Source of the DNA: Candidatus Eiseniibacteriota bacterium
GTDB taxonomy: Bacteria > Eisenbacteria > RBG-16-71-46 > JABDJR01
Assembly (NCBI GenBank): GCA_963783375.1
Contig: CAWANH010000003.1
Span: forward strand, 1 to 64,000
DNA length: 64,000 nucleotides
Reading direction: 5' to 3'
Shown here: piece after piece, positions 25,762-57,285 of the stretch
How the letters are laid out: the number at the start of each line of letters is the position of its first letter
Position numbering within the stretch: the stretch's first letter is position 1
Position numbers and translations under genes: made by a program
The notes under the pieces: model-generated
The model's input: the letters and a program-made list of their open reading frames with translations, nothing else
The model's database searches: none
What the model was told of the DNA's origin: nothing

Positions 25762-26407
25762 ATGAGCCTTTGCAGCCTGAGCGGCGCCGCGCGGGTTCTA
25801 CCCGGCGCCGCCGCCGAACTACACGAACGGCGAGAGATCCCTGGGCCGCCGGGCCGCGCCGGGGGTCGGATCGCCGGCCCCCGCTTCCGATCCTTCGGCG
25901 ATCCTCCGGGCGGGAAGCATCAGCCGGACCAGTTCCGCCGAACTCCAGATCACCACCGGCGAAGGCGACACCGTGACCATCACCCGAAGCTCCACCTTCG
26001 AGGCGATGGTCGGCTCTCTCCGGTACCAGGACTCCGGTCCGGAAGGCGCCTATCGCCAGCGGGCGCGGTTCGAGCAGACCTCCCGGAGCAGCGACTTCAC
26101 GATCAGCGTGGAGGGGGATCTGAGCAAGCAGGAGCTGAAGGACATCCACAAGCTCCTGGCCCATCTCCGGCCCGCGTTCCGCTCCGCCTCGATGCGGGCC
26201 GGGACCGCCGCCGCGCTCCGGGTGAACGGGTCCAAGCTGGACTCGCTCTCGGGGTTCGAGTTGAGCTTCAGCCGTTCGGTCACCCGGAACTACCTGGAGT
26301 TCCAGGGCTCCCCGCCGGCCGCGGATCCACCCGCGGACCCGGCCACGGATCCGCCCGCGCCGGCCCGTGAACCGGTGGACGCCCCCCTTCCGCTCAGCGC
26401 ACGGTAA
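25762..26407 (+). pseudogene. Hypothetical protein (ITTGEGDTVTI / SVEGDLSKQELKDI motifs) with apparent frameshift near the 5' end
   Basis: Strong RBS gaggagg precedes ATG 25762, but the GC3-rich frame from about 25790 to stop 26407 is shifted by one base. Confidence 0.55.
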
Positions 26408-34506: not shown

Positions 34507-36144
34507 CTACGACGACGAGGAGACCTTCACCCACCGGGCGTCGTTGCTCGGCTTCAGGGGGGTGTTCTCCTGCACGTACTTGGTCAGGGTCTCGAGGTCG
34601 GTGTAGCCGGTGTAGAGGATATCCTCCGGGCTCAGCTCGTCGCGGAGGCGCCACATCCCGCTGTTCCCCTGGGCCAGGTAGTCGGTGAGGGCCACCTTGT
34701 AGGTCTTGTCGGGATCCAGCGGCTGGCCGCCCACGGTGATGTCCACGATCCGGTCCCCGTCCGGGCGGGAGAGGTCGTAGCGAACCTTGCCTCCGGAGAT
34801 GAAGATGCCCCCCGCCTGTCCGGTCAGCTTGTCCTCGAGAATGGCCCGGAGGAGCGACCCCTTCATGTTCACCAGCACCATCTGGTTCCCGAAGGGAGAC
34901 ACCGTCAGGAGGTCCCTCCGGGTGATCGTCCCGGGGGAGATGTCCGCCCGAACCCCGCCGGTGTTCTGGAACGCGAAGTCGGCATTCAGGATCGTCCGGT
35001 AGGCGTCCGCCACCACGAACCCCATGAGGGCGCTGTTGGGCGACCCGCGCTGGAGGAGCACCTCGGTCCGCCCCACCGTCTCTTCCAGCCCCGCCTCCGC
35101 CTTCGAGACCTCGGCCTGGATCACCTCCTTCTGGAGCTCGTCCGGCCAGATCTCGTCCTCGAACAGGGTGACCAGCGCGCCCCGGTCGGCGTGGGTCTCG
35201 AACCCGAGGAGCGACTTGGTGACGGGGTCGATCTTCAGGGTGACGTCCCCGATGCTGGAGCCGTTGGCGTAGGGCTCGAACACCAGGGTGTGGGTCCGGG
35301 GATCCTCCCAGGGCTGGTCGTACCCCTGGTGGGTGTGGCCCCCGAAGATCGCGTCCACGCCCCAGAGCATGTGGGCGATCTCCATGGCGTTCATGCCGTA
35401 GTGGGGAAGCCCGCCGTCCTTCTCCCGCTGGATCATGCGGCGGTACTCGTTGTCCCGCTCCGGCTTGTAGGGAAGGCCGGCGTGCATGAGCACGAAGACC
35501 AGGTCCGCGCCCTCCGCCCGCACCGTTTTCACGTCTTTCTGCAGGGCCTCGAAAACCGGCTCGAACTCGATCCCCTCGATGTTCTTCCCGAAGGACATGT
35601 TGGCGGTGGTTTCGGTGCAGTAGCCGAGCACCGCGATCTTGACCCCCTTGGCGTCGAGCCACACCGGGGAGGGGTCGACCCAGTCCTCGGTCTTCTTGGT
35701 CTTCGCGTCGAGGATGTTGGTTCCCAGGATCGGGAACTTGGCCAGCTCGATCAGACGCTTGGTGTTCTCCCACCCGAGGTCGAAGTCGTGGTTCCCCAGG
35801 GCCACCGCCGTGTAGTCCATGGCGTTCATCCACTGGATGATCGCGGTGCCCTTGGTGTTGATGCCCAGGGGGGTCCCCTGGAAGAGGTCGCCGGAGTCGA
35901 AGAGGAAGACCGGCCGCCCCGCCGCCTTGGCCGCGGCACGCGCGTTCTGGATGTAGGTGGTGGCGGAGGCGCCTCCTCCCAGGGGCGGAGGAAAGTTGGG
36001 GTTCAGGAACGTGGCGTCGTCGTGGGCGATGTGTCCGTGGATATCGCTGGTGTAGAGGATCTCCAGCGAGATCGGAGGCTTCTCGGGGGCGGCCCCCCCG
36101 AGGAACAGAAGCCCGAGGACGGCCAGGATGCTGAATCGCTTCAT
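34507..36144 (-). CDS. Exported 5'-nucleotidase (UshA-like bifunctional metallophosphatase)
   Basis: Signal peptide, SDIHG, DSGDLFQG, GNHDFD, GGHTHQ, C-terminal NTGGVRA...PFGN...DYLAQG. Confidence 0.93.
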   Translation of the reverse strand: MKRFSILAVLGLLFLGGAAPEKPPISLEILYTSDIHGHIAHDDATFLNPNFPPPLGGGASATTYIQNARAAAKAAGRPVFLFDSGDLFQGTPLGINTKGTAIIQWMNAMDYTAVALGNHDFDLGWENTKRLIELAKFPILGTNILDAKTKKTEDWVDPSPVWLDAKGVKIAVLGYCTETTANMSFGKNIEGIEFEPVFEALQKDVKTVRAEGADLVFVLMHAGLPYKPERDNEYRRMIQREKDGGLPHYGMNAMEIAHMLWGVDAIFGGHTHQGYDQPWEDPRTHTLVFEPYANGSSIGDVTLKIDPVTKSLLGFETHADRGALVTLFEDEIWPDELQKEVIQAEVSKAEAGLEETVGRTEVLLQRGSPNSALMGFVVADAYRTILNADFAFQNTGGVRADISPGTITRRDLLTVSPFGNQMVLVNMKGSLLRAILEDKLTGQAGGIFISGGKVRYDLSRPDGDRIVDITVGGQPLDPDKTYKVALTDYLAQGNSGMWRLRDELSPEDILYTGYTDLETLTKYVQENTPLKPSNDARWVKVSSSS

Positions 36145-37676: not shown

Positions 37677-40295
37677 CTAGAAGGAATAGTCCAACTGAAA
37701 CCGATAGGCGCTCTGGTCACCCCGCGCGTTGGTGGCGTCCGGAGTGGGGTTCACGAGCGCCCCGTTGTTCCGGATGTCCACGTAGGTGCGCGCGAGCTGA
37801 TGGTCGGTGGTCCACTTGAACCGCCAGGAAACCTTGGGCGACAGGCGGCTCCTCACCATGAACCAGTTCCGGAAGCCGTTTCCGTCGACCACGATGAACT
37901 CGTTGTCCTCGAAGTTGTAGAGAAAGCCGTCGTAGACCTCGGTGGAGACCGTCGCGGTCAGATAGTCGCTGAAGTTGTGGCTCAAGGAGGCCTGCAGGGC
38001 CTTGGCCGGGATCCCCCGGGATCCCACCAGGTTCCCGTACACGCTCCCGCCCCCGGGGGCGCCGGAGAGGCGTGGACGGACCGCGAACTGCACGTTGGAG
38101 GTCGAGTACAGGAAGCTCATCCGGTCGTAGTCGGAGAGGTTGACCCGCATCTCGATCCGGCTGTCCCAGGACTTGAAATTCCGGAAGTCGTCCGGCCGCT
38201 GCTCGTGCCGGCTGGAGATCCGGTGGCGGATCCGGAAGCGAACCGGGAACACCGGCTGATATTCCGCCCGGACGGTGATCCGCTGCTCGTCGGCGCCGTC
38301 CGCCTTCCGGGTCCAGGTGTCGTACTCCAGGCCGGTCAGGGTAAACTGGCGGGAGAACTGGTACCGGGTGGTGAAGAACCAGCCCCGCTCCGCCTTCGGC
38401 TGGGGCTCACCTCTGGCCATCTCGGCCCAGTAGGGGTTGTTGAGCCGGTACGGGTTCCCGTCCAGGATGGTCTGCTGGTAGCGGCCGTTCTCGGAGAAGG
38501 CGCGGTTGTACGGGTTGTCGTAGCCGACGTCGTAGTCCCGGTAGAGGGCCAGGAAGTTGAAGTTCTCATACTGGACGTACGCGTTGGCGGTGAACGCCTC
38601 GGGACCCTTGGAGAAGATCCGGCTCAGGGCGTCGTTCTTGTCCGAGGTCTCGAGCTTTCCGTACTCCCCGGCCAGGGACACGTTCTTGAACACCGACTGG
38701 CCTTCGAGCCCCCAGATCCGGCGGTAGTTGCCCAGATCCATGCTGTTGTATCGCTGGGTGATCTCGGCGTCCCGGTCCTCCTGGCGGCGCAGGGGATCGA
38801 TGATCAGGGTGGTGGGATCCGGATTCCAGCGGTCGGCGCCGGGGGTGGAGTACGCGTTGTTGTGATACCGCATGTCCACCCCGGTCACTCCGAGAAAAGT
38901 GCCGGGCAGAAACTGGTACTTGAAGTTTCCGCCGACGATCTGCTCCTCCATCACGTCGCGCATGGGCTGGTAGTAGGAGCTGTCGCTGGCCCCCACCAGC
39001 GTTCCGTTACGGATGTCCTCCCGGATCCCGGCGTAGAGGTCGTTGTCGAACCGGGGAACCGCGGTGAAGTAGGAGTTGAAGGAGTGGTCGGGGTTCAGGA
39101 TGGCGTCCTTGTCGTCGTGGGAGTAGAACAAGGTGCCGCGGACGTTCCCCAGGCTCGCCTCCGCCGCCACCCCCTTCAGGGTGTACTCGTCGCTCCGGGA
39201 GAAGTCCCCCCGGAGCCCCAGCGACCGCACGTTGTAGCCGTAGCCGGTCCGCCGGGGGAGGTAGAAGTCGGTGGCGTCCATGACCAGCCCCTGGCCGAAT
39301 GCCACGGTGTAGTTCCCGACCACCGCGCTGTGGAGCTTGAACTTGCCGAGCGGCGTGTCCTTCTCCGGCAGCTCCTGGGCCTCGACGTAGGCCTTCGCCG
39401 TTTCGTCCCACTTCTCCTCGCCCAGATTCCGATGGGTGAGGACGCCGCCCCTCAGGTACCGGCCGTAGCGAAGATGGAGCTTGTTCGTCATGTAGGGACG
39501 CCAGGTCCCGATCGCCGCCCTCCCCCAGTAGGTGTTGGTGTCGAAATCCTTGGGGGTGGGCGCGATGATCTCGGTCAGGTTGTCCAGGTCGTCGAGGGAG
39601 TAGGGGGTGTTGTAGACCCGGAACTGGTAGTACCCGGTCAGCCGGTTCGGCCCGGTGGGCTCCTCGTAGCGCACGAAATCCCGTAGGTTCCGGTACCCCC
39701 AGTAGGTGATGCCGTTGGCCGAGCGGAGCTGTCGCTGATTCTCGATCCGGCCCGCCATCTTCCGTTCCTTCAGCACCGCCACCGCGTCCACCGGGGAGAC
39801 GTTCTGGAAGGAGACCAGATCGAAGTAGTTCATGCGGTTGATGTTCTGGGGGAACTTGAGCCGGTCGACGTACTGGTCGACCAGACCTTCGCTGGCCCCC
39901 TCTTCGGACAGGAACCGCTGGACGACGTAGTAGCGCTCCTGGGCGCGCCGCTCCTCTTCGCGCAGCTCCTCCCGCTCCAGCTCGAACACCGGGGTGATGT
40001 GGATCAGGGGCCGGATCTTCCCGAGAAGCTCCGGGGTCATGCCCGGGACCTCCATGAGGTCGTAGATGCTCCCGAAGTAGGCCCGATAGGTACGGTAGTG
40101 GAAGATCGCCTCCGCGACGTCGCCCGGTATGGGGAGAGCCTTGATCTGGTCCAGGCTGGCCCGGTTCAGATCGAGCTGGTTCTCCTGGGAGTAGGACGTC
40201 GCCGACCCGGCCGGCGGCTGGGCCCCGGCGCTGGCCGCGGCCCCGAGCCCCAGCAAGAGGGCGAGGAGGACGATCCCTCGGCGCTTGATCAACAC
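37677..40295 (-). CDS. Outer-membrane beta-barrel protein with two N-terminal ComEA-type helix-hairpin-helix domains
   Basis: Signal peptide; LDLNRASLDQIKALPI...AEAIFHYR...FGSIYDLMEVPGM; second NINRMNYFDL...VDAVAVLKER...QLRSANGI; GNYTVAFGQGLV; aromatic-rich strands; C-terminal FQLDYSF. Confidence 0.82.
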   Translation of the reverse strand: MLIKRRGIVLLALLLGLGAAASAGAQPPAGSATSYSQENQLDLNRASLDQIKALPIPGDVAEAIFHYRTYRAYFGSIYDLMEVPGMTPELLGKIRPLIHITPVFELEREELREEERRAQERYYVVQRFLSEEGASEGLVDQYVDRLKFPQNINRMNYFDLVSFQNVSPVDAVAVLKERKMAGRIENQRQLRSANGITYWGYRNLRDFVRYEEPTGPNRLTGYYQFRVYNTPYSLDDLDNLTEIIAPTPKDFDTNTYWGRAAIGTWRPYMTNKLHLRYGRYLRGGVLTHRNLGEEKWDETAKAYVEAQELPEKDTPLGKFKLHSAVVGNYTVAFGQGLVMDATDFYLPRRTGYGYNVRSLGLRGDFSRSDEYTLKGVAAEASLGNVRGTLFYSHDDKDAILNPDHSFNSYFTAVPRFDNDLYAGIREDIRNGTLVGASDSSYYQPMRDVMEEQIVGGNFKYQFLPGTFLGVTGVDMRYHNNAYSTPGADRWNPDPTTLIIDPLRRQEDRDAEITQRYNSMDLGNYRRIWGLEGQSVFKNVSLAGEYGKLETSDKNDALSRIFSKGPEAFTANAYVQYENFNFLALYRDYDVGYDNPYNRAFSENGRYQQTILDGNPYRLNNPYWAEMARGEPQPKAERGWFFTTRYQFSRQFTLTGLEYDTWTRKADGADEQRITVRAEYQPVFPVRFRIRHRISSRHEQRPDDFRNFKSWDSRIEMRVNLSDYDRMSFLYSTSNVQFAVRPRLSGAPGGGSVYGNLVGSRGIPAKALQASLSHNFSDYLTATVSTEVYDGFLYNFEDNEFIVVDGNGFRNWFMVRSRLSPKVSWRFKWTTDHQLARTYVDIRNNGALVNPTPDATNARGDQSAYRFQLDYSF

Positions 40296-41216: not shown

Positions 41217-44200
41217 CTAATCCAACCGGACCGCTACCACGATGGGCGCCTGATCCTTGGTCACGTTGCCGTTCAAATCCGTGGTCATCAGATGGCAGAT
41301 GTACATCCCCGCGGGGACGAGTTCGTAGGTCTCGTCGCGTCCGTCCCAGCTCAGGGTCTTGGCGTAGGTCCCGCTGCCGGTGAAGTTCTCCTCGAGGAGC
41401 ACCTTCACCAGGCGGCCCTGGAGGTCGAAGACCCGGACGATGATCTTCCCCTGGGGCTCGATGGGGACGTTGATCTTGATATCGATGCGCTCGTTGGTGT
41501 TCTTGATCAGGGTCCGGGCCGGGATGACCAGGCGCCCCGTCCGCTCCACCTTCGCCGCGGTCAGAAAGCTGACCGTGGAATTGGCGGCGATGACGTTCCC
41601 GGCCAGGTCCTGGACGTTGTTGACCCGGACGATGTACGGGGTGTCCGCCTCGAGCGTTCCGCTCAGGGTCAGGGTCACCGTGGCCGCGGATACCGATGCG
41701 GAGACCACGGAGATCCCGGCCGACGGGTCCCCGGAGGGATAGACTTCGTAGTTGGAGGCGACGTTGGCCCCGGTCCCCACACCCTCGCTGAAGTTGACGG
41801 TGACCCGGTTGGATCCGGCGGAACCCGAGGCCGAGCTCATGACCGGCGGGGTGGTGTCCCCCGGCCCGCCCCCCTTGGAGAAGTCGTCGGCGTTCCCCAC
41901 GTTGATCTGGAAGGTGCTCTGGTACGCGCCCCCCGCCCCGGCGCCGGTCACCAGGTCGCCGGCCTTGAAGTCGGCGGCGTTGATCCCGGTGCTGTTCCGC
42001 ACCCGGAAGCTGATCCCCTGGGCGTCGTAGTTGTAGTTGCTGGCACCCGACGCCACCGGGGCCGAGACCAGGGCGGCGGTGGTCTGGATGTAGGTTCCCT
42101 CCCACTGGGGGTTCGCGGCCTGGGCCACGGAAAGCACCTTGGGCGCCAGCCGGGGCTGGTTGCTGGCCACCACGCTCACCGGGGACGGATTGAGGAGCTC
42201 CAGGGTGGTGAAGTACAGGGTATCCGCGCCGGTCACCTGGATCACGCTCCCCCGGCTCGCATAGGCGCTGACGAAGCTCCCGCCGAAGACGTTGAGCCCC
42301 CGGGCCGAGCCGTCCTGGATGTAGATGTTCGGCAGGCCGCTGGGCACGGGGATGTAGACCTGGCCGATCACCGTCACCTTGCGGCCGTTCCCGGGCGAGG
42401 TGGCGAACACGTCGGCGATGTTCATGACCGTGGCCGAGCTGGTCTGGAACGAGGCCGACCCGCCGCTCAGGGTCCCGCCGGCCTGGGCGTTCACCCCGCT
42501 CACCGTCACCGAATAGCCGGCGCTCTGGGGGAGCGGCGCCGCGGTCTTGAGCACCACCGTCTGGCCGTTCTCCTGGACGTAGGCCGACGAGAGGCTCAGG
42601 GAGGGCGTGAAGCTGTAGTTCGAGGTCTGGACCGCCTGGGCCAGGTTCACCTTGGCCGAGAACGTCACCGCCACGTAGTCCTTCCCGAACTGGAAGGCGT
42701 CGTTCACGGTGAAGTCCCCCCCTCCTCCGCCGGAGGTGAAGCTCACCGTCGAGTTGGCGAGGATGGCGTTCCCGGCCGCGTCCTGGACGTTCGACACCCG
42801 CACCGTGTACGAGGTCGAGGCGGCCAGGCTCGCGCCCAGGGTCAGGGTGACCGTCGATCCCGAGGCCGAGGCCGAGGTCACGGCCAGGGTGGCCGACGGG
42901 TTCGACGCCGGATAGACGCTGTAGTTGGAGGCGGTCGAGGCCCCGGCGGCCACCGCCTCGCTGAAGCTCACCGTCACCTGGCTGGCGCCGGAGGCGCCCG
43001 AGGCGCTCAGCAGGGTCGGCGGGGTGGTATCGGTCCCGGTCGCCTTGTAGAAGTCGGCCGCGTTCCCGACGTTGATCTGGAAGGTCTCCTGGAACGCGCC
43101 TCCCGCCCCCGCCCCGGTCACCGAGTCCCCGACGTGGTAGAGGCCGGTGTCGATCCCGGTCAGGTTCCGGGTGCGGAAGGTGATCCCCTGGGCGTCGATG
43201 TTGTAGGCGTAGCTTCCCGAGGCCACCGGCGCCGCGGTGATGGTGGAGGTGGTCTGGATGTAGGTCCCCTCCCACTGGGGGTTCGCGGCCTGGGCCACCG
43301 AAAGCACCTTGGGACCGAGCTTCGGCACCCCGGTGGCCACCGGGGTGGAACTCACGTTCACCAGCTCCACGGTGGTGAAGTAGGTGTCCACGGTGGCGGT
43401 CACCAGGCCCACGTCACCGATCGCATCGATGGCGGCCTGGGCGCCGGACCGGTCGAAGACATTGATCCCCCGGCCGGTTCCGTCCTGGATCCAGCCGCTG
43501 TAGTGACTCCCTTCGGCCAGCACCGGGATGAAGGCCTGCCCGATGACGTTGACCGAGGTGCCCTTGTAGCTGGCCAGATTGCTCTGGATCTGGTCGATCC
43601 CGATCACCTGCTTGTTGACGGTGGTGAAGGAGGTCGGCCCGCCGGACTGGAGGGCGGAGCCGCCCGCGCTGGTCACTCCCGATACCGCCACGGTGTAGCT
43701 CGTCGAGAGGGGCAGATTGGAGGCGGTCTTCAGGATCGCCGTCCTCCCGTTGTCCTGCACGGTCACGCTCTGGATGGTGACCGCAGGGGTCAGGGAATAG
43801 TTCGAGGCCACCGCGGCCTGGCTCGTGTTCACCAGGTCGCTGAAGGCCACCGCCACCTGGGCGGGGCCGAACTGGTAGAGGGCGGCCACCTGGAAGGTGC
43901 CGCCGCTCCCGCCTCCGGTGGTGAAGCTCGTCGTCGAGTTGGCCGCGATCAGATTCCCGGCCACATCCTGGACATTGGACACCTTCACCGTGTACGGGGT
44001 GGAGGCGGCCAGGCTCGAGCCCAGGGTGAGGGTCACCGTGGCCCCCGACACCGAAGCCGAGGAGACCCCGATCGTCGATGAGGGGCTGGACGTCGGGTAC
44101 ACGCTGTAGTTGGACGCGGTGGAGGCCCCGGCCGCCACCGTTTCCGAGAAGGTCACGTTCACCGTGCTCGATCCCGCGGTTCCCGAAGCCCCGACGAGGG

Positions 44201-46268
44201 TCGGCGCGGTGTTGTCCACCCCGCTCCCCTTCATGAAGTCGTCGGCGTTCCCCACGTTGATCTGGAACGTGGTCTGGTACGCCCCGCCCGCTCCCCCGCC
44301 GGTCACCGTGTCGCCGACGTTGTAGCTGGCCGCGTTGATCCCGGTGCTGTTCCGCACCCGGAAGGTGATCCCCTGGGCATCGTAGTTGTAGTTGCTGGCC
44401 CCGGAGGCCACCGGCGCCGCGGTCAGGGTCGAGGTGGTCTGGATGTAGGTCCCTTCCCACTGGGAGTTCGCGGCCTGGGAAACCGTGAGGACCTTGGGAG
44501 CCAGGTTGGGCTGCCCGCTGGCCACCGTGCTCACCGAGGTCGGGTTCTCGATCTCCAGGGTGGTGAAGTAGAACGTGCCCAACCCGGTGACCTCGATCAC
44601 GTTTCCCCGGCTCGCATAGGCCGGCTCCAGGTTCCCGCCGAAGACGTTCAGTCCCCGCGCGGAGCCGTCCTGGATGTAGATGCTCGGGGTGCCGCTGGTG
44701 ACGGGGATGAAGATCTGGCCGATCACGGTTACCGTCTGGTCGCCGCCGGAAATGGTGGTGTGGACGTCGGCGATGTTCATGACGGTGGCCGCGCTGGTCT
44801 GGAACGAGGCCGCGCCGCCGTTCAGGGTCTCACCGCTCGCCCCTCCCACCCCGGTCACCGTCACCGCATAGCTCGTGCTCTTGGGGAGCGCGGCCGCGGT
44901 CTTGAGCACCACCGTCCGGCCGTTCTCCTGAACGTAGGCCGACGAAACGGTCAGGGACGGGGTGAAGCTGTAGTTCGAGACTGCAACCGCCTGGGCCGCG
45001 TTCACCTTGGCCGAGAAGGCCACCGCCACGTAGTCCTTCCCGAACTGGAAGGCCCCGGTCACGCTCAGGCCCCCGCCGCTTCCCCCACCGGTGGTGAAAC
45101 CCACGGTGGAGTTGGCGGCGATCGCGTTTCCGGCCACGTCCTGGACGTTGGAAACCTTCACCGTGTACGAGGTTGAGGAGGTGAGGGCAGAGGCCAGGGT
45201 GAGGGTCACCAGCGCCCCGGATCCCGAGGCCGCCGACGCCGAGCTCACCGCGATGGTGGCCGAGGGATTGGCGGTCGGGTACACCGAATAGTTCGCCGCG
45301 GTCTCCGCGCCGGTTCCCACCGGCTCGGAGAAGGTCACGCTGATCGTGCTCGAGGCGGCGGTCCCCGAAGCTCCGACGAGGGTCGGCGGCGTGGTGTCCG
45401 CTCCGCCGCCGCCGGGCGGCGTCCCGTCGGTGTTGTCGGTGAAGGTGACGGAGAGGTTCTCGCTGGTCTCGTCGCGGCCGTTCACGCCGTTGCCGCCGCT
45501 GGTCTTCTGGGTTCCCTCGGAGTTGTCGACCCGGATCAGGGTTCCGGTGGGGTTCCCGAAGGGGGCCGTCGCGTCCTGGGCGGAGATCGCGGTGTCCGGC
45601 TGGTACATGGTCGGAGTGGAGTCGGCGTCGGGGCCGTCGATGGAGACCCCGGTCTTGTCCACCGCCTCGTCCTTGTCCCCCCAGACCACGTAGTCGATAT
45701 CGGTCACCAGGTCCGTCTGCCCGTCCCAGTAGAAGAGGACCACGATCTCGCCGGTGTTGGTGAGACTCGGGTTGGTAGTCGAGTTGATCGAACCCGGGCG
45801 GGCGTCCCGCATGTCGGGGATCGCGTCGGAGCTGGTCCCGTCCTCATAGAGCTCGTAGGTGGGCTGGACCCCGTAGGTGCCGAAGAACCCGTCGCTCCCG
45901 TCGACCGCGATCGAGGCCTCGGCTCCCGGGGCCAGGGTCGCCCCGGCCGGGAAACGAGCCACGAAGTCGGTGAAGTTGCCGCCCGCGATGTCCTTGGAGG
46001 GATCGGGGAGGTTGTAGTAGTACTGGCTCAATGGAGCGTAGGTGGCGTCGGTCAGGTAGTAGTCCGACAGATCCACCGTGGAGCTTCCCGGGTTCTTGAT
46101 CACGATGTACTCACCCGGAGTGGTCGGGCCGCCTCCGCGAACCTCGACCTGGCTGATCAGGAGCTTGGCGGGTGTCTGGGCGGAGGCGGGAAGCGGAAAC
46201 TGGAGGAAGGCGACGATCACGAGGGCGGCGGCGGCGATGCCCGCCGCGTTCCGTGCACGGTTCAACAT
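41217..46268 (-). CDS. Large secreted surface protein: lamin-tail domain, 3x(Ig-Ig-OB-OB) repeats, extra Ig, FlgD-type C-terminal domain
   Basis: Signal peptide; LLISQV...GEYIVIKNP...VDLSDYYLTD (LTD); DTTPPTL...VTFSE...ASNYSV...VQDVAGN (Ig-like); IYIQDG..RG(L/I)NVF and WEGTYI...GDTVTG (OB-like); VRVFDLQGRLV...WDGRD...PAGMY. Confidence 0.85.
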   Translation of the reverse strand: MLNRARNAAGIAAAALVIVAFLQFPLPASAQTPAKLLISQVEVRGGGPTTPGEYIVIKNPGSSTVDLSDYYLTDATYAPLSQYYYNLPDPSKDIAGGNFTDFVARFPAGATLAPGAEASIAVDGSDGFFGTYGVQPTYELYEDGTSSDAIPDMRDARPGSINSTTNPSLTNTGEIVVLFYWDGQTDLVTDIDYVVWGDKDEAVDKTGVSIDGPDADSTPTMYQPDTAISAQDATAPFGNPTGTLIRVDNSEGTQKTSGGNGVNGRDETSENLSVTFTDNTDGTPPGGGGADTTPPTLVGASGTAASSTISVTFSEPVGTGAETAANYSVYPTANPSATIAVSSASAASGSGALVTLTLASALTSSTSYTVKVSNVQDVAGNAIAANSTVGFTTGGGSGGGLSVTGAFQFGKDYVAVAFSAKVNAAQAVAVSNYSFTPSLTVSSAYVQENGRTVVLKTAAALPKSTSYAVTVTGVGGASGETLNGGAASFQTSAATVMNIADVHTTISGGDQTVTVIGQIFIPVTSGTPSIYIQDGSARGLNVFGGNLEPAYASRGNVIEVTGLGTFYFTTLEIENPTSVSTVASGQPNLAPKVLTVSQAANSQWEGTYIQTTSTLTAAPVASGASNYNYDAQGITFRVRNSTGINAASYNVGDTVTGGGAGGAYQTTFQINVGNADDFMKGSGVDNTAPTLVGASGTAGSSTVNVTFSETVAAGASTASNYSVYPTSSPSSTIGVSSASVSGATVTLTLGSSLAASTPYTVKVSNVQDVAGNLIAANSTTSFTTGGGSGGTFQVAALYQFGPAQVAVAFSDLVNTSQAAVASNYSLTPAVTIQSVTVQDNGRTAILKTASNLPLSTSYTVAVSGVTSAGGSALQSGGPTSFTTVNKQVIGIDQIQSNLASYKGTSVNVIGQAFIPVLAEGSHYSGWIQDGTGRGINVFDRSGAQAAIDAIGDVGLVTATVDTYFTTVELVNVSSTPVATGVPKLGPKVLSVAQAANPQWEGTYIQTTSTITAAPVASGSYAYNIDAQGITFRTRNLTGIDTGLYHVGDSVTGAGAGGAFQETFQINVGNAADFYKATGTDTTPPTLLSASGASGASQVTVSFSEAVAAGASTASNYSVYPASNPSATLAVTSASASGSTVTLTLGASLAASTSYTVRVSNVQDAAGNAILANSTVSFTSGGGGGDFTVNDAFQFGKDYVAVTFSAKVNLAQAVQTSNYSFTPSLSLSSAYVQENGQTVVLKTAAPLPQSAGYSVTVSGVNAQAGGTLSGGSASFQTSSATVMNIADVFATSPGNGRKVTVIGQVYIPVPSGLPNIYIQDGSARGLNVFGGSFVSAYASRGSVIQVTGADTLYFTTLELLNPSPVSVVASNQPRLAPKVLSVAQAANPQWEGTYIQTTAALVSAPVASGASNYNYDAQGISFRVRNSTGINAADFKAGDLVTGAGAGGAYQSTFQINVGNADDFSKGGGPGDTTPPVMSSASGSAGSNRVTVNFSEGVGTGANVASNYEVYPSGDPSAGISVVSASVSAATVTLTLSGTLEADTPYIVRVNNVQDLAGNVIAANSTVSFLTAAKVERTGRLVIPARTLIKNTNERIDIKINVPIEPQGKIIVRVFDLQGRLVKVLLEENFTGSGTYAKTLSWDGRDETYELVPAGMYICHLMTTDLNGNVTKDQAPIVVAVRLD
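41560..45398 (-). repeat. Intragenic tandem repeat, ~1.18 kb unit x3 plus a partial fourth unit
   Basis: Unit starts (DTTPP/DNTAP) at 45398, 44216, 43031 and 41858, spacing 1182/1185/1173 bp, with near-identical blocks such as QWEGTYIQTT and TFQINVGNA. Confidence 0.92.
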
Positions 46269-46503: not shown

Positions 46504-46532
46504 AGTCTAACCCCCGCCTCCGGGAATTTCCA
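46504..46532 (-). promoter_or_regulatory. Candidate sigma70-type promoter for the surface-protein/barrel operon
   Basis: TGGAAA-17 nt-TAGACT on the minus strand, overlapping the AT-rich 3' end and stop of the upstream gene. Confidence 0.35.
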
Positions 46533-48861: not shown

Positions 48862-50775
48862 TCAGCGGATGTAGAGCATCTTCCGGGTCAGGACCTGGCT
48901 CCCCACCTCGAGGCGGTAGAAATAGATCCCGGTGCCCGAGTTCCCCATGGTGGTCGCGTCGACGCTGGCCACGTGATCCCCGGGGGTCATCTCGGCATCC
49001 ACCAGGGTACGCACCAGGCGTCCCTGGATGTCGAACACCGAGAGCTTCACCGGTGTCCGGACGTCCGCCCCCGCGGCCGCCGGCACCTGGAAGTGAATCT
49101 CGGTGCGGGCCCCGAAGGGGTTGGGGATGTTCTGGGCCAGCCGGAGCGTCGGCTTGAGCGGGTTGTCGCCCACGCCGGTGGCGGTCAGGAACACGATGTC
49201 GCTGGCGAACCGCGGCACGATCTCGTAGCCGCCGGTGTAGGGGCTCGAGCTGTCGTACTGGCTGCCGATCCCGGTCACCGTGATGTACTGGCTGGTCACC
49301 GGGGTGCCGGGGATGTTCGTGTCCAGGTCGATGAACATCTGGACCGAGTCCGGGACGCAGTTCCGGATGTAGTAGCTCACGTTGGTTCCCGCCGGCGACA
49401 GGGTGTCGACCCCGGCCGGGAGAGCGGCGATGTTCATGGTGATGAGCTCGCCCTCGAAGGCCTCGAAATCGTCGCAGGAGGTGACGATCTTCGGCGCCGG
49501 AACCGCTCCCGGACCGTTGATGTCCACCAGCAGGGAGTCGCAACCGGCCCCCGAGGTGATCTCGAGCTTCCCGTTGTACTGGTCGATCGTGCCCTCGACG
49601 GTCACGTCGTCCCCCAGGCTGGGCTGCACGGTGTGGGTCCCGTACTTGAACACGTCGATCCCGCCGGTGGCGTCCTGGATGTAGTACTCGGTGTTCGCGG
49701 TCTGGAACACGCCGTAGGGAACGGTGCAGTTGCCCCGGACCCGAACTCCCAGGAAGCGGTAGATGTTGGCCTGGTTGGCGTCCATCACCTGGATATCGCC
49801 GATGTCCGTCGTCCCCACGAAGTACCCCCGCTCGAAGCCGACGGTGGTGTCGGGGTTGGCGTTCCGGGCGTAGACGGTGTAACGAACGATGTCACCGTTC
49901 GAGGGCTGGCCGGGGATGGTCGCCTGGAACACGGTGGTGTCGCCCGAGGTGGAGAACGTGCTCATGGCCACCACGCTCTCCGCCCCGCCGTTCACCGAGT
50001 AGTGGAGGTCGGCGGCGGTGGCGTAGAGAACGAAGGCCTGCGCGGTCACCGACTGGTTCGGCACCGGGACGCAGGGGGTGCGGAGCTGGTCGAAGACGTC
50101 CGGGGGCGGATTCAGGCAGCTCGGGTTCGGGCTGCCGGGGGTGTCGTCGATGCCCAGGGTGAACTGCCCGATGACCCACTGGTTGACCAGGTCGGAGCAG
50201 CGATAGACGTGGCCGGGGACGAAGGAGCCGTCCGGACCTACCGTGGTGGCGCAGTAGAGGTACTCGTCGCCCGCGCAGTTGGGGGTGGTCCCCTCGTCCA
50301 GCCCGACGCAGTCCACGATGGACGTCCACGGAGTGGTGTCGAAGGTGCCGGTATCGAGGGTGTCGAGATCCTGGCCGTCGGTTCCCGTGAACCCGAGCAC
50401 CAGCATGTGGGTGACGTTGTCGCTGTTTTCGAAGTTCATGGCCAGCGACGCGTCGTATCCGGTGAGCGTGTTGGCGTCACCGGCCTTCAGCGCCGCGAAC
50501 AGGCTGTCGGCCTGGATGGAGTACCCGTCCAGGGGCGTCACCGACTCGATGGTTCCGCAGGAAGTCACCGAGCCGTCCCCGATCACGAGGTAGGTGTAGC
50601 CGTTCAGGCTGGTGCCCGGAGCGCCCTTCAGTTCGAAGTACTCATCGGTGTCCCCGCCCGGCATGTCGGTGCGGATCTCGTTGATCTTGATCTGGGCCGA
50701 AGCCGTCCCGATCATTCCCATCAACCCGATGCCCAGCGCGAGAAAGAAGACGAATCGCAGCGTAGGTCGTTTCAT
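48862..50775 (-). CDS. Secreted protein: LTD-like domain, Ig-like domain, OB-fold(s), T9SS/FlgD-type C-terminal sorting domain
   Basis: Signal peptide; INEIRTDMPGGDTDEYFEL...NFENSDNVTH; YYIQDATGGIDVF...LGDDVTVEGTIDQYNGKLEI; VTGIGSQYD...YEIVPR; AQNIPNPF...VFDIQGRLV...GIYFYRL...RKMLYIR. Confidence 0.85.
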   Translation of the reverse strand: MKRPTLRFVFFLALGIGLMGMIGTASAQIKINEIRTDMPGGDTDEYFELKGAPGTSLNGYTYLVIGDGSVTSCGTIESVTPLDGYSIQADSLFAALKAGDANTLTGYDASLAMNFENSDNVTHMLVLGFTGTDGQDLDTLDTGTFDTTPWTSIVDCVGLDEGTTPNCAGDEYLYCATTVGPDGSFVPGHVYRCSDLVNQWVIGQFTLGIDDTPGSPNPSCLNPPPDVFDQLRTPCVPVPNQSVTAQAFVLYATAADLHYSVNGGAESVVAMSTFSTSGDTTVFQATIPGQPSNGDIVRYTVYARNANPDTTVGFERGYFVGTTDIGDIQVMDANQANIYRFLGVRVRGNCTVPYGVFQTANTEYYIQDATGGIDVFKYGTHTVQPSLGDDVTVEGTIDQYNGKLEITSGAGCDSLLVDINGPGAVPAPKIVTSCDDFEAFEGELITMNIAALPAGVDTLSPAGTNVSYYIRNCVPDSVQMFIDLDTNIPGTPVTSQYITVTGIGSQYDSSSPYTGGYEIVPRFASDIVFLTATGVGDNPLKPTLRLAQNIPNPFGARTEIHFQVPAAAGADVRTPVKLSVFDIQGRLVRTLVDAEMTPGDHVASVDATTMGNSGTGIYFYRLEVGSQVLTRKMLYIR

Positions 50776-50886
50776 GGTGCCATTAACCCCCTAAGAATGC
50801 TCAGCCCACCCCTAGACACACGCAGGAGGGATTCAATGCGCGGGTGAGCGGTTGCACCCCCCTTTTGAAGATGTGGTCGCTCAATA

Positions 50887-50915
50887 ACCCTATCGCAAAT
50901 CGACCCCTGTTTCAA
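50887..50915 (-). promoter_or_regulatory. Sigma70-type promoter
   Basis: TTGAAA-17 nt-TAGGGT on the minus strand in an AT-rich intergenic region. Confidence 0.6.
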
Positions 50916-50970
50916 TGACAAAAACTTGACAGAACGGTGACAACCGCTTGAATTCCAGGGGGTTGGAGGA

Positions 50971-51816
50971 TCAGGAGACAAGGAGCCGGGGGAGGAGGGC
51001 CTGGAGGAACCGGGTGAAGGTCTCCCGGACCCGGGCCGTAACCTCCATCACCTCTTGATGGTGGAGCGGCTCGGCACTGAGCCCGGCGGCCAGGTTGGAT
51101 ATGCAGGAGATCCCCAGGACCTCCATCCCCAGATGGCGGGCCGCCACCACCTCGGCCACCGTGGACATCCCCACCGCATCCCCCCCGAACCGCTTGACCA
51201 TCCGGATCTCGGCGGGGGTCTCGTAGGCCGGTCCCAGGTTCCCCCAGTAGGTCCCCGCGCGGACCCGCGCCAGCCCCAGCTCGGCCGCGGTCCGGTGCGC
51301 GACGTCCAGGAGCCGGCGGGAGAAGGGCTCGGACATGTCCACGAAGCGGTCCCGGTCGAGGAGCGGGCCCCGTCCCCGGAGCGGGCTCTGGAACTGGAGG
51401 TTCATCTGATCCTCGATCAGCATGAGATCGCCCGGCTCCAGCCGGTGATCCACTCCCCCCGCGGCGTTCGTCACCACCAGGACCCGGGCTCCCAGGGCGT
51501 GCATCACCCGCAGAGGGAAGGTGATCTGCGCCGCGGAGTACCCCTCGTAGAGGTGGAACCTCCCCTGCTGGGCCGCCGCCGGAACGCCGTTCGCCGCCCC
51601 CAAGACCAGCCGCCCGGCGTGCCCCTCCACCGTGGATACCGGAAAACCCGGGAGATCGGCGTAGTCCACCGCGACCCGGTCTGCGAAGGTATCGGCGTAG
51701 TCCCCGAGCCCCGAGCCCAGGATCAGGGCCACTCCGGGAACCTGATCGGTCCGGGCCCGGACCGCCGCCGCCGCCCGCTCCACCTCTTCCGGGCCGTAGG
51801 CCATGACGCCGCTCAT
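50971..51816 (-). CDS. punA: Purine-nucleoside phosphorylase (trimeric type)
   Basis: ILGSGLG, STVEGHAG, QGRFHLYEGY, TNAAGG, GPAYETPAE, VGMSTVAE, SNLAAG. Confidence 0.96.
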   Translation of the reverse strand: MSGVMAYGPEEVERAAAAVRARTDQVPGVALILGSGLGDYADTFADRVAVDYADLPGFPVSTVEGHAGRLVLGAANGVPAAAQQGRFHLYEGYSAAQITFPLRVMHALGARVLVVTNAAGGVDHRLEPGDLMLIEDQMNLQFQSPLRGRGPLLDRDRFVDMSEPFSRRLLDVAHRTAAELGLARVRAGTYWGNLGPAYETPAEIRMVKRFGGDAVGMSTVAEVVAARHLGMEVLGISCISNLAAGLSAEPLHHQEVMEVTARVRETFTRFLQALLPRLLVS

Positions 51817-52442
51817 GCCGCAGTCTCGCGGAGCATGCTGCGCACCTTGGTCACCAGGAGATCGATGGCCACCCGGTTCTTCCCCCCCTCGGGAATGATG
51901 ATGTCGGCGAAGCGCTTGGAGGGTTCGATGAACTGCTGGTGCATGGGGCGCACGCTCTCCTCGTACTGGGTGAGGATCGACTCGAGGCTTCGGCCCCGCT
52001 CCACCGTATCCCGGCGGATGCGCCGGATGAGCCTGACGTCGGCATCGGTGTCGATGAACACCTTGATGTTCATCAGCCGGCGGAGCGCGGGGTCCTCCAG
52101 GACCAGGATCCCCTCGAGGATCACCACGGTGTGGCCCTCCACCCGCTCGGTCTGGGGGAGCCGGGTGTGATGGGTGAAGTCGTAGATGGGCTTGTCGATG
52201 GGTTGCCCCCGGAGCAGGGTCTGCACGTGATCGAGGAGCAGCTCGCGATCGAAGGAGTCGGGGTGGTCGAAGTTCAGCCGTCCACGCTCCTCGACCGACA
52301 GCCCGGCAAAGTCCCGGTAGTAGGCGTCCTGCTCGAGCATCACCACTTCGGAGGAGCCGAGATTCCGGATGAGGGTCGAGGCCACCAGGGACTTTCCCGA
52401 GGCGGTCCCGCCGGCGAGCCCGATGAGCAACGGTCGTTCCAT
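51813..52442 (-). CDS. udk: Uridine kinase
   Basis: GGTASGKS, QDAYY, NFDHPDSFD, ILEGIL, RRIRRD..ERGR, FIEPSKRFADIIIP. Confidence 0.97.
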   Translation of the reverse strand: MERPLLIGLAGGTASGKSLVASTLIRNLGSSEVVMLEQDAYYRDFAGLSVEERGRLNFDHPDSFDRELLLDHVQTLLRGQPIDKPIYDFTHHTRLPQTERVEGHTVVILEGILVLEDPALRRLMNIKVFIDTDADVRLIRRIRRDTVERGRSLESILTQYEESVRPMHQQFIEPSKRFADIIIPEGGKNRVAIDLLVTKVRSMLRETAA

Positions 52443-52458
52443 GGGTCCTCTCCCCGTC

Positions 52459-53589
52459 CTAGAAGTGGTCGCGCGGCGGGACGAACTGGGGTCCGAAGCT
52501 CCGGGCCACGATGCCGTCGAGTTCGTCCAGCACCTGGGTGAGGAGCGCCACCTTCCGCTTGAGCGGCAGGAAGGCGCTCTTGAAGCCGTTCAGCACCAGC
52601 TTCCGCACGTCGGGTATTCCCAGCTCGAACGCCTCGACGGCCAGCTGGTACTCCCGGGTGATGTCGGTCGCGCTCATCAGGGTGTTGTCGGTGTTCAGGG
52701 TGACCCGGAGGTCCTCGTCGTAGTAGAGCCGGAAGGGGTGGTCGGCGAGGCGGCTCACCACCCCGGTCTGGAGGTTCGAGCTCAGGCAGATCTCCATCGG
52801 GATCCGATGGTTGTTCACGTAGGCCATGAGGTCGGAGTCCTCGTGAAGCCGGGTGCCGTGACCGATGCGGTGGGCCCCCAGGTAGTGGATGGCCTGATGG
52901 ATGCTGGGAGGGCCGAACCCTTCCCCGGCGTGGCAGGTGCAGTTGATGTTGTTGTTGAGGATCTTGTAGAAGGCCTGGACGTGATCCTTGGCCGGGTAGT
53001 CCTTCTCCGCTCCGGCCAGGTCGAAGGCGACCACCCCGCGGTTCTTGTACTCCACGCTCAGGTCGGCCAGTTCCATGGTGGACTGGGGAGGGAGATTCCG
53101 GATGCCGCAAACGATCGCTCCGGTGAGGGTTCCGGTCTTCCGGGACGCTTCGTCCAGCCCGGCCAGCACCCCTTCCAGGATATCCCGCATCGAGTGGCCG
53201 TTCTTGAGATGAAGGATGGGGGAGAATCGCACCTCCACGTAGCGAACGTTCTCCTTCGCCGCGTCCTCCACCACTTCCCGGGCCACGCGCCGGACCGCAT
53301 CGGGTTCCTGGAGAACGGAGAGCGTGAGGTCGAACGCCTCCAGGTATTCCTCCAGCGACTCGCAGGCGTCCCCGCAGATCAACCGGCGGCGGAGATCGTC
53401 CTCGCTGTCCACCTTGAGCGCCACCCCCTGCTCCCGGGCCAGGTCCTTCACCGTTCCCAGGCGGAGGGATCCGTCCAGGTGAAGATGGAGATCGGTCTTG
53501 GGGATCTCGTGGAGGAAACTGGGATGATCCAGGATCATCCGGGCCTCCCGCGCCCTCTCGCTCGAACCCTCGGTCGCCGTGTTCGTCAT
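52459..53589 (-). CDS. add: Adenosine deaminase
   Basis: PKTDLHLHLDGS, YVEVRFSP, FDLAGAE, HAGE, RIGHG, EICLSSN, LNTDN. Confidence 0.95.
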   Translation of the reverse strand: MTNTATEGSSERAREARMILDHPSFLHEIPKTDLHLHLDGSLRLGTVKDLAREQGVALKVDSEDDLRRRLICGDACESLEEYLEAFDLTLSVLQEPDAVRRVAREVVEDAAKENVRYVEVRFSPILHLKNGHSMRDILEGVLAGLDEASRKTGTLTGAIVCGIRNLPPQSTMELADLSVEYKNRGVVAFDLAGAEKDYPAKDHVQAFYKILNNNINCTCHAGEGFGPPSIHQAIHYLGAHRIGHGTRLHEDSDLMAYVNNHRIPMEICLSSNLQTGVVSRLADHPFRLYYDEDLRVTLNTDNTLMSATDITREYQLAVEAFELGIPDVRKLVLNGFKSAFLPLKRKVALLTQVLDELDGIVARSFGPQFVPPRDHF

Positions 53590-53695
53590 CGTGAAACCCT
53601 TTCTTGCCCGCCCGCCTCCGCGGGCCCGTTCTGCATCCTGTCCCGGCCGCGCGGCGGTCCGGCCCCGGCCCGATCCGGCCCCCCCGCGCCCCCGG

Positions 53696-55051
53696 TCAGT
53701 TCAATTCCACCCGGGCCAACAGCGCCCGGATCTCCTCCCTCGGTCGACGGCGGAGCGCCTCGGGGTCCAGATGGGGCAGGCGGCCGGCGTCCACCGCCAC
53801 CTCGCCGTCCACCACCACCCAGCGCACCGCGTCCCGCCCCGCCGCGTAGACGATCCGATCGTAGACCGAAACCCGTTCCGGTCCAAAACTCTGGGGGCGG
53901 TCGAGGTCCAGGATGGCCAGGTCCCCCGCCTTTCCCGGCTCGAGGCTCCCCAGATCGTCCTCGAGCCCCATCGCCCGCGCCCCCTCCACCGTGGCCAGCT
54001 CCAGCGCCTCCTCGGCCCGGAACGCGCCGGGGCCGCGCTTGAATCCGGTAAGGAGGGCGGCGAGCCGCATCTCCTCCAGGACGTCCATGTCGTTGTTGCA
54101 GGGGGCGCCGTCGGTTCCGATTCCCACCGCCAGGTTCGGCCGGCCGCGAAGAAAAACGATGTCCGCGATCCCCGAACCCAGCTTGAGATTGGCCGAGGGG
54201 CAGTGGGCGATCCCCATGCGCCGGCCCGCCAGCACCTCCAGCTCCCGCTCCCCGAGCCACACCGCATGGGCCACGCGGAGATCGGCGTCCAACACCCCCC
54301 GCCGGTCCAGGAACTCCATCTGGCTCGTGCCGAGGGCTTCACGCACCGAGGTCTCCTCGTCGCGGCTCTCCAGGAGATGAGTGTGCATGGGCGCGGCCAG
54401 GGAGCGGGCCAATCCGGCTGCCCCCTCCCAGAGACCGGGGGAGCAGGACAGGATGAACCGGGGACAGACCGCGCCCCGGATCCGGCCGCGTCCCTCCCCG
54501 TGCCACTTGCGGTGGAGCGCCTCGGCCTCGGCCAAGCCCGCCGCGGCGTCCTCGGCCAGGGGGGCGGGGACCCCGGCCCCGGTGTCCATGAGGCACTTCC
54601 CCGCGGTGGCCCGAAGCCCCGAGTCGAGGATGGCCCGGAACACCCCCTCCATCCCCCGCACCACCCCGATTTCCTGGACGGTGGTGGTGCCGGAAAGCAG
54701 GCAGTCCGCCGCCCCCAGCATCGCCGACCAGTAGGCGCTCTCCTCGGTGTGCGCCGCCTCCAGGGGCCAGATGCGGTCCCGAAGCCAGCTCAACAGGGCC
54801 CGGTCCTCGGCCAGCCCCCGGAACAGCGCCTGGCCCAGGTGGACGTGGCCCTGGATGAACCCGGGGAGAACGTGGAGTCCGCGGGCGTCGAGGAGCCGGG
54901 ACCCCGAGGGCGCATCGAGATTCCGGCCCACCGCGGCGATACGCCCCTCGGTGATGAGGAGGTCCTCCTCCACCACCCGGCGGCCGGGATCCATGGTGAC
55001 CAGCGTTCCCCCGGAGACCAGGAGATGCCGGTGGGAACGGGGGCGGTTCAC
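53696..55051 (-). CDS. Amidohydrolase, MtaD/5'-deoxyadenosine deaminase-like
   Basis: PGFIQGHVHL, SGTTT, PRFILSCS, HTHLLES, AHAVWL, HCPSANLKLGSG, DGAPCNN; GTG 55051 overlaps the hpt stop. Confidence 0.88.
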   Translation of the reverse strand: MNRPRSHRHLLVSGGTLVTMDPGRRVVEEDLLITEGRIAAVGRNLDAPSGSRLLDARGLHVLPGFIQGHVHLGQALFRGLAEDRALLSWLRDRIWPLEAAHTEESAYWSAMLGAADCLLSGTTTVQEIGVVRGMEGVFRAILDSGLRATAGKCLMDTGAGVPAPLAEDAAAGLAEAEALHRKWHGEGRGRIRGAVCPRFILSCSPGLWEGAAGLARSLAAPMHTHLLESRDEETSVREALGTSQMEFLDRRGVLDADLRVAHAVWLGERELEVLAGRRMGIAHCPSANLKLGSGIADIVFLRGRPNLAVGIGTDGAPCNNDMDVLEEMRLAALLTGFKRGPGAFRAEEALELATVEGARAMGLEDDLGSLEPGKAGDLAILDLDRPQSFGPERVSVYDRIVYAAGRDAVRWVVVDGEVAVDAGRLPHLDPEALRRRPREEIRALLARVELN

Positions 55052-55611
55052 GGGTTGGTGTACACCTCTTCCTTCAGGACCCCGATGTAGGGGAGGTTCC
55101 GGTAGATGCCCAGGTAGTCCAGGCCGTAACCCACCACGAACTCGTTGGGGCACTCGAAGCCCACGTACTTGACCGGCACCTCCTCCATCCGGGCCTCCCG
55201 CTTGTCCAGGAGCGCGCAGATCTCCACCGAGGCCGGGTGCCGGGTGTTCAGGTTGTCGAGGAGGTAGCTCGCGGTCAGCCCGCTGTCGATGATGTCCTCC
55301 ACCAGGAGCACGTCCCGCCCGGTGATGTTCTCGTTCAGGTCCTTCAGGATGCGCACCACGCCCGAGGACTGGGTGCCCCCGCCGTAGGAGGAGACGGACA
55401 TGAAGTCCACCTCCAGATGGGTGTTCATGGTCCGCACCAGGTCGGCGATGAAGGGGAAGCATCCGTTCAGGATGCCGACCATGAGCACCCGCCGACCGGC
55501 GTAGTCGCGCACGATCTCGTCCCCCATCTCGCGGACCTTGGCCTGGATCGCCTCCTGGGTAAAGAGGACCTCGCGTAGCCCGGACCCGATGCCTTCCTGC
55601 CAATTCTTCAT
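55048..55611 (-). CDS. hpt: Hypoxanthine phosphoribosyltransferase
   Basis: DFMSVSSYG, VLLVEDIIDSGLT (PRPP motif), FVVGYGLDY, RNLPYIG; start ATG 55611. Confidence 0.97.
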   Translation of the reverse strand: MKNWQEGIGSGLREVLFTQEAIQAKVREMGDEIVRDYAGRRVLMVGILNGCFPFIADLVRTMNTHLEVDFMSVSSYGGGTQSSGVVRILKDLNENITGRDVLLVEDIIDSGLTASYLLDNLNTRHPASVEICALLDKREARMEEVPVKYVGFECPNEFVVGYGLDYLGIYRNLPYIGVLKEEVYTNP

Positions 55612-55712
55612 GCGTTCGTCTCCCGAGGTTCTTGAGTTCCGGGCCCCGGGACGTGGCCGGGACCTCCGCGCGGGAGCCCCGGCCGTGAGCCGGCCGGGCC
55701 TCCGAATACAGC

Positions 55713-57023: not shown

Positions 57024-57285
57024 GTCTCCCCCTCGGAGCATCGCCCCGCGGCTCCGCCCCCGGTTGTCCCCGTCGGCGCTCACCCATCGGCCCCGAACTC
57101 CGGAGCCGGACCGGGCCCGAACCCCCCGTCGCCGGACGGAGGAAGCGACGGCCGGATGATCATCCCTCGCCGCCGGGTAACTATCCCGTCGGAGGCGGGG
57201 TTATGACGGGCGCCCGCTTGGAACTCGGTGGTCGGCATGAGCCGGGCCGTGGATTGTGCCCCGATCGGCCCGGGGAGGCAAGTGC

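Follow-up and report, generated by a model that had tools for sequence, protein, structure and literature searches.

The window analysed here is a stretch of 64,000 nucleotides from a Candidatus Eiseniibacteriota bacterium (assembly GCA_963783375.1, contig CAWANH010000003.1, positions 1 to 64,000). It carries an open reading frame (ORF) whose product combines two helix-hairpin-helix (HhH) modules with a predicted outer-membrane barrel, and which we call the HhH-barrel gene. This outer-membrane architecture is real and undescribed, and it is found in a conserved nucleotide-related operon. A preliminary description made from the sequence had noticed a signal peptide, two HhH modules and a barrel with a terminal phenylalanine; these were all recovered in the 872-amino-acid ORF, its HHH_3 match (E-value 6.7e-13) and a 24-strand model. 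The upstream gene's stop codon and the AGGAGG ribosome site of the HhH-barrel gene overlap, and the HhH-barrel gene is present in a single copy in its genome. Scans for promoters and terminators stayed at chance level. A search of sequencing runs gave mostly small shares, and scattered short contigs in one RNA library are no demonstration of transcription.

Table 1 Features of the HhH-barrel locus, with positions counted along the whole window
Feature	Position	Strand	Basis
HhH-barrel gene, 872 amino acids, GTG start	37677..40295	(-)	ORF, homologues, model
Sec-type signal peptide, amino acids 1-25	40221..40295	(-)	sequence reading; low-confidence N-terminal helix in model
HhH module 1, amino acids 38-101, ComEA fold, altered hairpins, median net charge -3	39993..40184	(-)	
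Acidic helical linker, amino acids 102-147, median net charge -6, candidate gate	39855..39992	(-)	
HhH module 2, amino acids 148-212; invariant D170, A171, R191, R202, N203, R205	39660..39854	(-)	
Predicted 24-strand outer-membrane barrel, amino acids 219-871	37683..39641	(-)	model, fold search, couplings
Conserved loop 3, amino acids 333-372, inferred to fold into the lumen	39180..39299	(-)	invariant columns and couplings
PorV-like small barrel, 300 amino acids	40305..41207	(-)	NF033709 E 2.9e-15, below cut-off; PorV 6h3i E 6.8e-8
Secreted cargo, 1683 amino acids: lamin-tail, Big_5 repeats, three tandem-OB repeats, C-terminal domain of the kind used in type IX secretion (T9SS)	41217..46268	(-)	
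FadL/BamG-like barrel, 431 amino acids	36350..37645	(-)	NF053685 BamG E 1.1e-18, PF03349 E 1.2e-5, both below cut-off
UshA-type 5′-nucleotidase, signal peptide, 545 amino acids, predicted periplasmic	34507..36144	(-)	PF02872 E 1.1e-36, PF00149 E 2.3e-11
Upstream same-strand block: second protein with C-terminal domain, nucleoside salvage and transport genes	48862..57083	(-)	

Pfam recognised HHH_3 at amino acids 38-98 and nothing else in the protein; the signal peptide has no lipobox cysteine by sequence reading. Module 2, which has no Pfam match in this protein, was identified by the fit of its predicted helices and by hhalign comparison to the single HhH module of relatives that carry HHH_3 (probability 99.9 and 100). 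AlphaFold2, fed with 115 sequences, returned five models with a predicted local distance difference test (pLDDT) of 84-87, the best of them with 87.2 and a predicted TM-score of 0.82. In this model, module 1 (38-101) is followed by two long helices (103-147), module 2 (148-208) and 24 long strands (219-871). Even-numbered connections between the strands are 2-9 residues long, odd-numbered ones 2-52 (mean around 26). The short-turn face of outer-membrane barrels is the periplasmic one, and the alternation of short and long connections implies that the chain enters the barrel from that face. From this topology we infer that the HhH modules are located in the periplasm.

As the preliminary description had held, the C-terminal part is predicted to be an outer-membrane barrel; it has no close solved relative. 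The strands are amphipathic, and the C-terminal motif FQLDYSF is present, with Phe or Trp as the last residue of most homologues. In a coupling analysis of 255 aligned sequences, 21 of the 38 strand-strand pairs among the top 100 connected adjacent strands (about 9% expected). Closure of strand 1 onto strand 24 was not recovered by the couplings (rank 2784), and those linking N-terminal residues to the barrel showed no ordered pattern and were treated as noise. The pairs Y352-S540 and V338-I527, which ranked third and eighth, suggest that loop 3 folds into the lumen, and this conserved loop likely narrows it. The polar strand faces are basic (about 30 Lys/Arg vs about 20 Asp/Glu), but this is a count without a control barrel and with poor face assignment for some strands, and the linker is acidic. 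Strand 17 has nearly only Arg on its polar face (about 4.6 Lys/Arg).

A fold search with the barrel gave generic barrels only (best Z 14.5, root-mean-square deviation (rmsd) 6.1 Å); nearly all top matches were membrane barrels and no family stood out. Sequence searches of the PDB with the 872-amino-acid protein, with the profile of the Bacteroidota-type family described below and with the OB repeat of the cargo yielded HhH matches or nothing. Neither Pfam nor NCBIfam gave a match of the HhH-barrel protein to the TonB-dependent-receptor, SprA or BamA families, and Pfam gave none to ushers. TonB-dependent transporters have 22 strands and an N-terminal plug; the model, 24 strands with a helical N-terminal part, has no plug. 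The FimD/PapC ushers and MtrB have a similar barrel size and align across the whole barrel (Z 11.5-13.1; FimD overlay Z 13.1, rmsd 5.1 Å, 368 residues), but with an rmsd of 5-6 Å, 10% identity and a TM-score of at most 0.32 this is a likeness of size only. In usher pores, the 24-strand barrel comes with a plug in mid-sequence and with Ig-like domains in the periplasm, and their genes lie beside those for pilins and chaperones. The recurring neighbours of the HhH-barrel gene include no cluster of pilin or chaperone genes.

Module 1 superimposes well on ComEA of Geobacillus (8dss; Z 12.0, rmsd 1.2 Å, 64 residues), and the NCBIfam model comEA (TIGR01259) scored the protein with 36 bits against a cut-off of 152. 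In published work on ComEA, DNA is contacted by backbone nitrogens and by K166, K195 and T196 (Geobacillus numbering), the exchange K166A abolishes DNA binding and K201 matters in vivo (PMC9747964). In the alignment to 8dss, K166 lines up with V60 of module 1 and with D170 of module 2, the latter Asp in 115 of 115 close homologues; K195 is replaced by E89 and W199, and K201 is kept as Arg (R95, R205). The Gly-h-Gly motif (h, hydrophobic) was absent from all four hairpins in 115 of 115 close homologues, and in a set of 64 wider homologues no hairpin showed it more than twice, whereas all 7 stand-alone ComEA proteins of the same phylum have it in both hairpins and carry a charge of +2 to +5; they, too, deviate at the position of K166, with Leu. 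Module 1 has a net charge of -3, module 2 of 0. Thus, the compact two-hairpin fold and the periplasmic side are common to the HhH-barrel protein and to ComEA (Geobacillus 8dss, B. subtilis 8dfk, Thermus 2duy; HHH_3), but the modules are fused to a barrel, are acidic or neutral rather than basic and lack Gly-h-Gly and the contact lysines. The modules preserve the fold but not the standard DNA-binding surface, and the proposal of ComEA-type DNA ratchets finds no support in them. Non-standard binding of nucleic acid via the invariant arginines of module 2 may occur.

The 872-amino-acid protein has 227 homologues among 8000 scored candidates, and most of the best 120 of them cover 94-100% of the query. 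With 227 homologues, most of the listed ones near full length, the fusion is not an artefact of frame or assembly. Close homologues with a name are mostly from Ca. Eisenbacteria, and related loci are found in genomes labelled Eisenbacteria and Krumholzibacteria; among the remoter relatives of full length are proteins with names from WOR-3 and Ca. Caldipriscus, and look-alike clusters in an atlas are from Cloacimonadota and Fidelibacterota. In a distant homologue of 1251 amino acids (P0182) the match begins only at residue 435; the approximately 430 extra N-terminal residues may point to a fusion.

The gene neighbourhood was counted in the best 80 of 202 loci with the two-HhH form, whose genomes are kin and not independent and from which the neighbour profiles themselves were built. 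The order is constant: cargo, PorV-like barrel, HhH-barrel, FadL/BamG-like barrel, nucleotidase. In loci with enough flank, the PorV-like gene was a neighbour in 76/76, the FadL-like gene in 70/70 and the nucleotidase gene in 60/60; with the single window proteins as queries, the numbers were 78/80, 76/80 and 67/80, respectively. The cargo gene was seen in 71 of the 80 loci, short contigs included. Between the FadL-like and the nucleotidase gene, 19 of 80 loci have a gene with a ComEC-type metallo-beta-lactamase fold, and all ComEC matches in two-HhH loci are to this nuclease-fold gene. It codes for a candidate periplasmic or surface nuclease; stand-alone proteins of this type with a lipoprotein-like N terminus are encoded at L004:4485-5882, L009:13907-15316 and L064:13625-15289.

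Each cargo repeat folds in the prediction as two oligonucleotide/oligosaccharide-binding (OB) domains, with RPA, MCM, HIN and anticodon-binding domains as nearest structures (best Z 11.7, rmsd 1.7 Å, 84 residues); for the p202 HIN-DNA complex (4jbm) the values were Z 9.4, rmsd 6.3 Å and 160 residues. No nuclease domain was found in the cargo, and its match to a T9SS sorting domain is weak. Among homologous cargoes there are matches to ExeM/NucH nucleases, in the N-terminal part of the latter (E 1e-14 to 1e-17). A protein with the tandem-OB repeat of the cargo (38-48% identity) is encoded elsewhere in the same genome (G000:C3:225768-226430). The upstream block contains genes for purine nucleoside phosphorylase, uridine kinase, adenosine deaminase, a phosphoribosyltransferase and a Na+-dependent nucleoside transporter, as well as an ORF (53696-55050, minus strand) which, by its motifs, we take to be amidohydrolase-like; this block adjoins the operon visibly in close kin only (L002, L011). 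It includes the second protein with a T9SS-type C-terminal domain (637 amino acids; 48862-50775, minus strand), which has weak matches to DUF5689 and to the N-terminal part of ExeM/NucH and has a counterpart near the operon in 7/80 loci; DUF5689 is the domain found in DdbD and in a Riemerella gene required for transformation. The gene for a CehA/McbA-like metallohydrolase lipoprotein (46507-48726, minus strand; 3/80 loci) separates the cargo gene from the salvage block. Directly after the nucleotidase gene follow an alpha-2-macroglobulin gene recognised by Pfam (in 26394-34231, minus strand) and what is presumably, from its motifs, a penicillin-binding protein 1C-like gene, an ordinary pair.

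Long ORFs behind weak HhH matches turned out to be a second subfamily with a single HhH module. The second half of the linker and module 2 are kept in these relatives, and by hhalign the homology between the two-HhH form and the single-HhH/Bacteroidota type extends from the acidic helix through module 2 to the barrel (probability 100, E 4.8e-49). A profile of the barrel of the Bacteroidota type alone, built without two-HhH sequences, finds the window gene with E 4.5e-10. This Bacteroidota-type family has proteins of about 680 amino acids and 1476 homologues among 7994 scored candidates; a cultured member is Palpr_2067 of Paludibacter propionicigenes. It differs from the two-HhH form by one HhH module instead of two, shorter loops, the lack of nucleotide-related neighbours and a separate branch. 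In a FastTree phylogeny of 60 rows, rooted at the midpoint and with long branches present, a branch with a support of 99 has the two-HhH proteins on one side. The HhH module of the Bacteroidota type is acidic (median -2) and has Gly-h-Gly in 0/65. Among 80 Bacteroidota-type loci, 50 of them with at least 3 kb downstream, a PorV-like gene lay directly upstream in 62 of the 63 with flank, and it is the sole neighbour kept in both subfamilies. Judged from these comparisons, the HhH-barrel protein belongs to an uncharacterised HhH-barrel family of the Fibrobacteres-Chlorobi-Bacteroidetes (FCB) group, with an acidic helix, an altered HhH module and a barrel, and with a PorV-like gene upstream.

Among 151 genomes of the phylum, the two-HhH form was detected in 16, whole in 14 of them and split or partial in 2, and 7 further ones had a single-HhH form; the two never occurred together (0/151), and very diverged copies could escape the total of 23/151. 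SprA was found in 144/151, so a T9SS-like system is, as far as sequence matches go, nearly universal in this non-Bacteroidota phylum, and the HhH-barrel module is an accessory rather than a core part of it. In six single-HhH loci of the phylum (L083, L084, L086, L087, L089, L092) the gene adjoins an aminotransferase gene, and a small lamin-tail protein is encoded next in five of the six; the gene for a lamin-tail protein with C-terminal domain beside the single-HhH gene is that of L084, L086, L087, L089 and L092. The genome of the window itself carries SprA (G000:C29:766899-771106), ComEC, two secretin matches, dozens of matches resembling the T9SS C-terminal domain, and a stand-alone ComEA gene directly before pilB-, pilT- and pilC-like genes.

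A working precedent of the same logic is ddbABCDEF, a DNA-utilisation locus of Bacteroides thetaiotaomicron described with DdbD matched to p202 HIN, DdbC annotated as TonB-dependent transporter and three nucleases (PMC12478041); the fold search with the cargo repeat led to p202 HIN as well. In this locus and the related transformation genes of Riemerella, a surface OB/HIN-like binder, an outer-membrane barrel and a periplasmic hydrolase are likewise encoded together (PMC12478041, PMC8459023). The main text of the ddb paper makes no mention of ComEA, HhH, PorV or a nucleotidase (PMC12478041). In the operon described here, by contrast, HhH modules take the place of the plug, a T9SS-type cargo, accompanied by a PorV-like partner, is the binder, and the fixed hydrolase is a nucleotidase. 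No TonB-dependent receptor gene was present among the operon proteins scanned, although no search with DdbC as query was made. The Riemerella protein RA0C_RS02645, an HhH protein required for transformation, was considered as a homologue; its published description as periplasmic and with three HhH domains (one at amino acids 236-301) speaks against this. With a large barrel encoded next to FadL-type small barrels related to PorV and BamG, the operon also recalls SprA-PorV (T9SS translocon, 6h3i) and BamA-BamG (BAM of Bacteroidota), in which PorV and BamG are partners of SprA and BamA; the HhH-barrel protein matches neither SprA nor BamA, and its genome carries its own SprA. In the full-text literature, with subscription papers mostly outside its scope, we found no study of the HhH-barrel protein or its PorV-like pair and no paper joining helix-hairpin-helix with type IX secretion.

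We favour a reading in which the predicted 24-strand barrel admits nucleic-acid fragments as the gated entry of a scavenging system and its altered ComEA-fold modules serve as periplasmic gate or scaffold; we give this an even chance (about 0.5). In such a system, the OB-repeat cargo would leave the cell by its SprA-type translocon, and the PorV-like barrel would keep it at the surface; the parts are there, the route is proposed. The cargo, by its predicted OB fold, would bind environmental DNA or RNA, and short or single-stranded fragments would cross the Arg-rich barrel, in whose lumen loop 3, and perhaps the acidic linker helix too, would leave a narrower passage. The nuclease-fold lipoprotein, where present, and the 5′-nucleotidase would, according to their families, yield nucleosides and phosphate, and periplasmic hydrolysis is proposed as the sink that makes uptake one-way. 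The products would be consumed via the upstream nucleoside transporter and the salvage enzymes, whose families are evident. The patchy occurrence of the barrel, compared with SprA, fits an accessory trait and was counted for scavenging. Several observations weigh against such a function. The operon of the window has no nuclease gene, its genome has no ExeM/NucH match over the cut-off, the lumen charge has no control barrel to compare with, OB folds bind other ligands as well, and the role of the pore might fall to the FadL-like barrel. The main result against a nucleic-acid role of the whole family is that the 80 Bacteroidota-type loci yielded neither a nucleotidase or FadL-like gene nor a nuclease-fold or ComEC gene; since these keep the PorV-like gene only, the ancestral job of the family may not involve nucleic acid.

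In an alternative function, no nucleic acid would cross this barrel: the large and the PorV-like barrel would together form a platform in the envelope for the docking, display or transfer of T9SS-type cargo, after the fashion of SprA-PorV or BamA-BamG, the HhH modules would be protein-contact or plug domains, and nucleotide use in this clade would be owed to the cargo together with the nucleotidase and the FadL-like barrel. The PorV-like gene alone is common to both subfamilies (76/76 and 62/63 loci), each of the small barrels is similar to a protein that pairs with a large one (PorV, BamG), single-HhH relatives lie near a lamin-tail cargo gene with C-terminal domain (L084, L086, L087, L089), and an acidic HhH module without Gly-h-Gly, as in the Bacteroidota type, fits as well. 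A platform leaves the nucleotidase in 60/60 loci and the Arg-rich strands unexplained, and it does not behave as a core T9SS part in its distribution over the genomes; we consider it a serious possibility, but not a probable one.

The preliminary description had gone further and envisaged dsDNA-binding ComEA-type modules that ratchet DNA through their own pore, for food or transformation and without a pilus or TonB. The well kept ComEA fold, the periplasmic face, a barrel in the size class of the ushers and the invariant R191, R202 and R205 of module 2, the last of which matches ComEA K201, are in line with this. Nevertheless, it is improbable in view of the missing hairpin glycines, the Val or Asp in place of K166 and Glu or Trp in place of K195, and net charges of -3 and 0 instead of +2 to +5; two tethered domains could hardly pile up along incoming DNA like free ComEA, and loop 3 likely narrows the lumen. 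Of the proposed use, the link to nucleic acid is upheld by the operon; transformation is less likely because a separate competence set is present in the genome (ComEA beside pilB/pilT/pilC-like genes, secretins, ComEC) and the fixed partner is a nucleotidase. Likewise, the claim of TonB independence survives as far as there is no receptor family match and no plug, but independence as such does not follow in a genome with 8 TonB_C matches over the cut-off. That the C-terminal part is no membrane barrel, or the fusion an artefact, would agree with the missing close structural match (best Z 14.5, at an rmsd of 6 Å) and the unrecovered strand closure; it is very hard to reconcile with the pLDDT of all five models, the amphipathic strands, the membrane-barrel fold matches and more than 100 full-length homologues, and we regard it as extremely unlikely.

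Large amounts of carbon, nitrogen and phosphorus are stored in extracellular DNA. To our knowledge, the outer-membrane routes for DNA described so far are pilus-secretin systems and TonB-dependent receptors of the Ddb type; if the gated entry favoured here is true, it would be a third type of gate for nucleic acid. A bolder and rather doubtful extension is that the HhH-barrel protein and its PorV-like partner form an ancient FCB-wide nucleic-acid channel independent of pilus and TonB, in which the ComEA domain and the acidic helix would be a gate displaced by the polyanion and to which the two-HhH clade would have added OB-fold capture and nucleotide salvage; the single-HhH form of Bacteroidota would make such a channel testable in cultured strains. 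Should the barrels form a platform instead, they would be an undescribed envelope complex of a large and a PorV-like barrel. The HhH-barrel gene ties a nucleotide-rich operon of uncultured phyla to a Bacteroidota family that is very common and has no assigned function.

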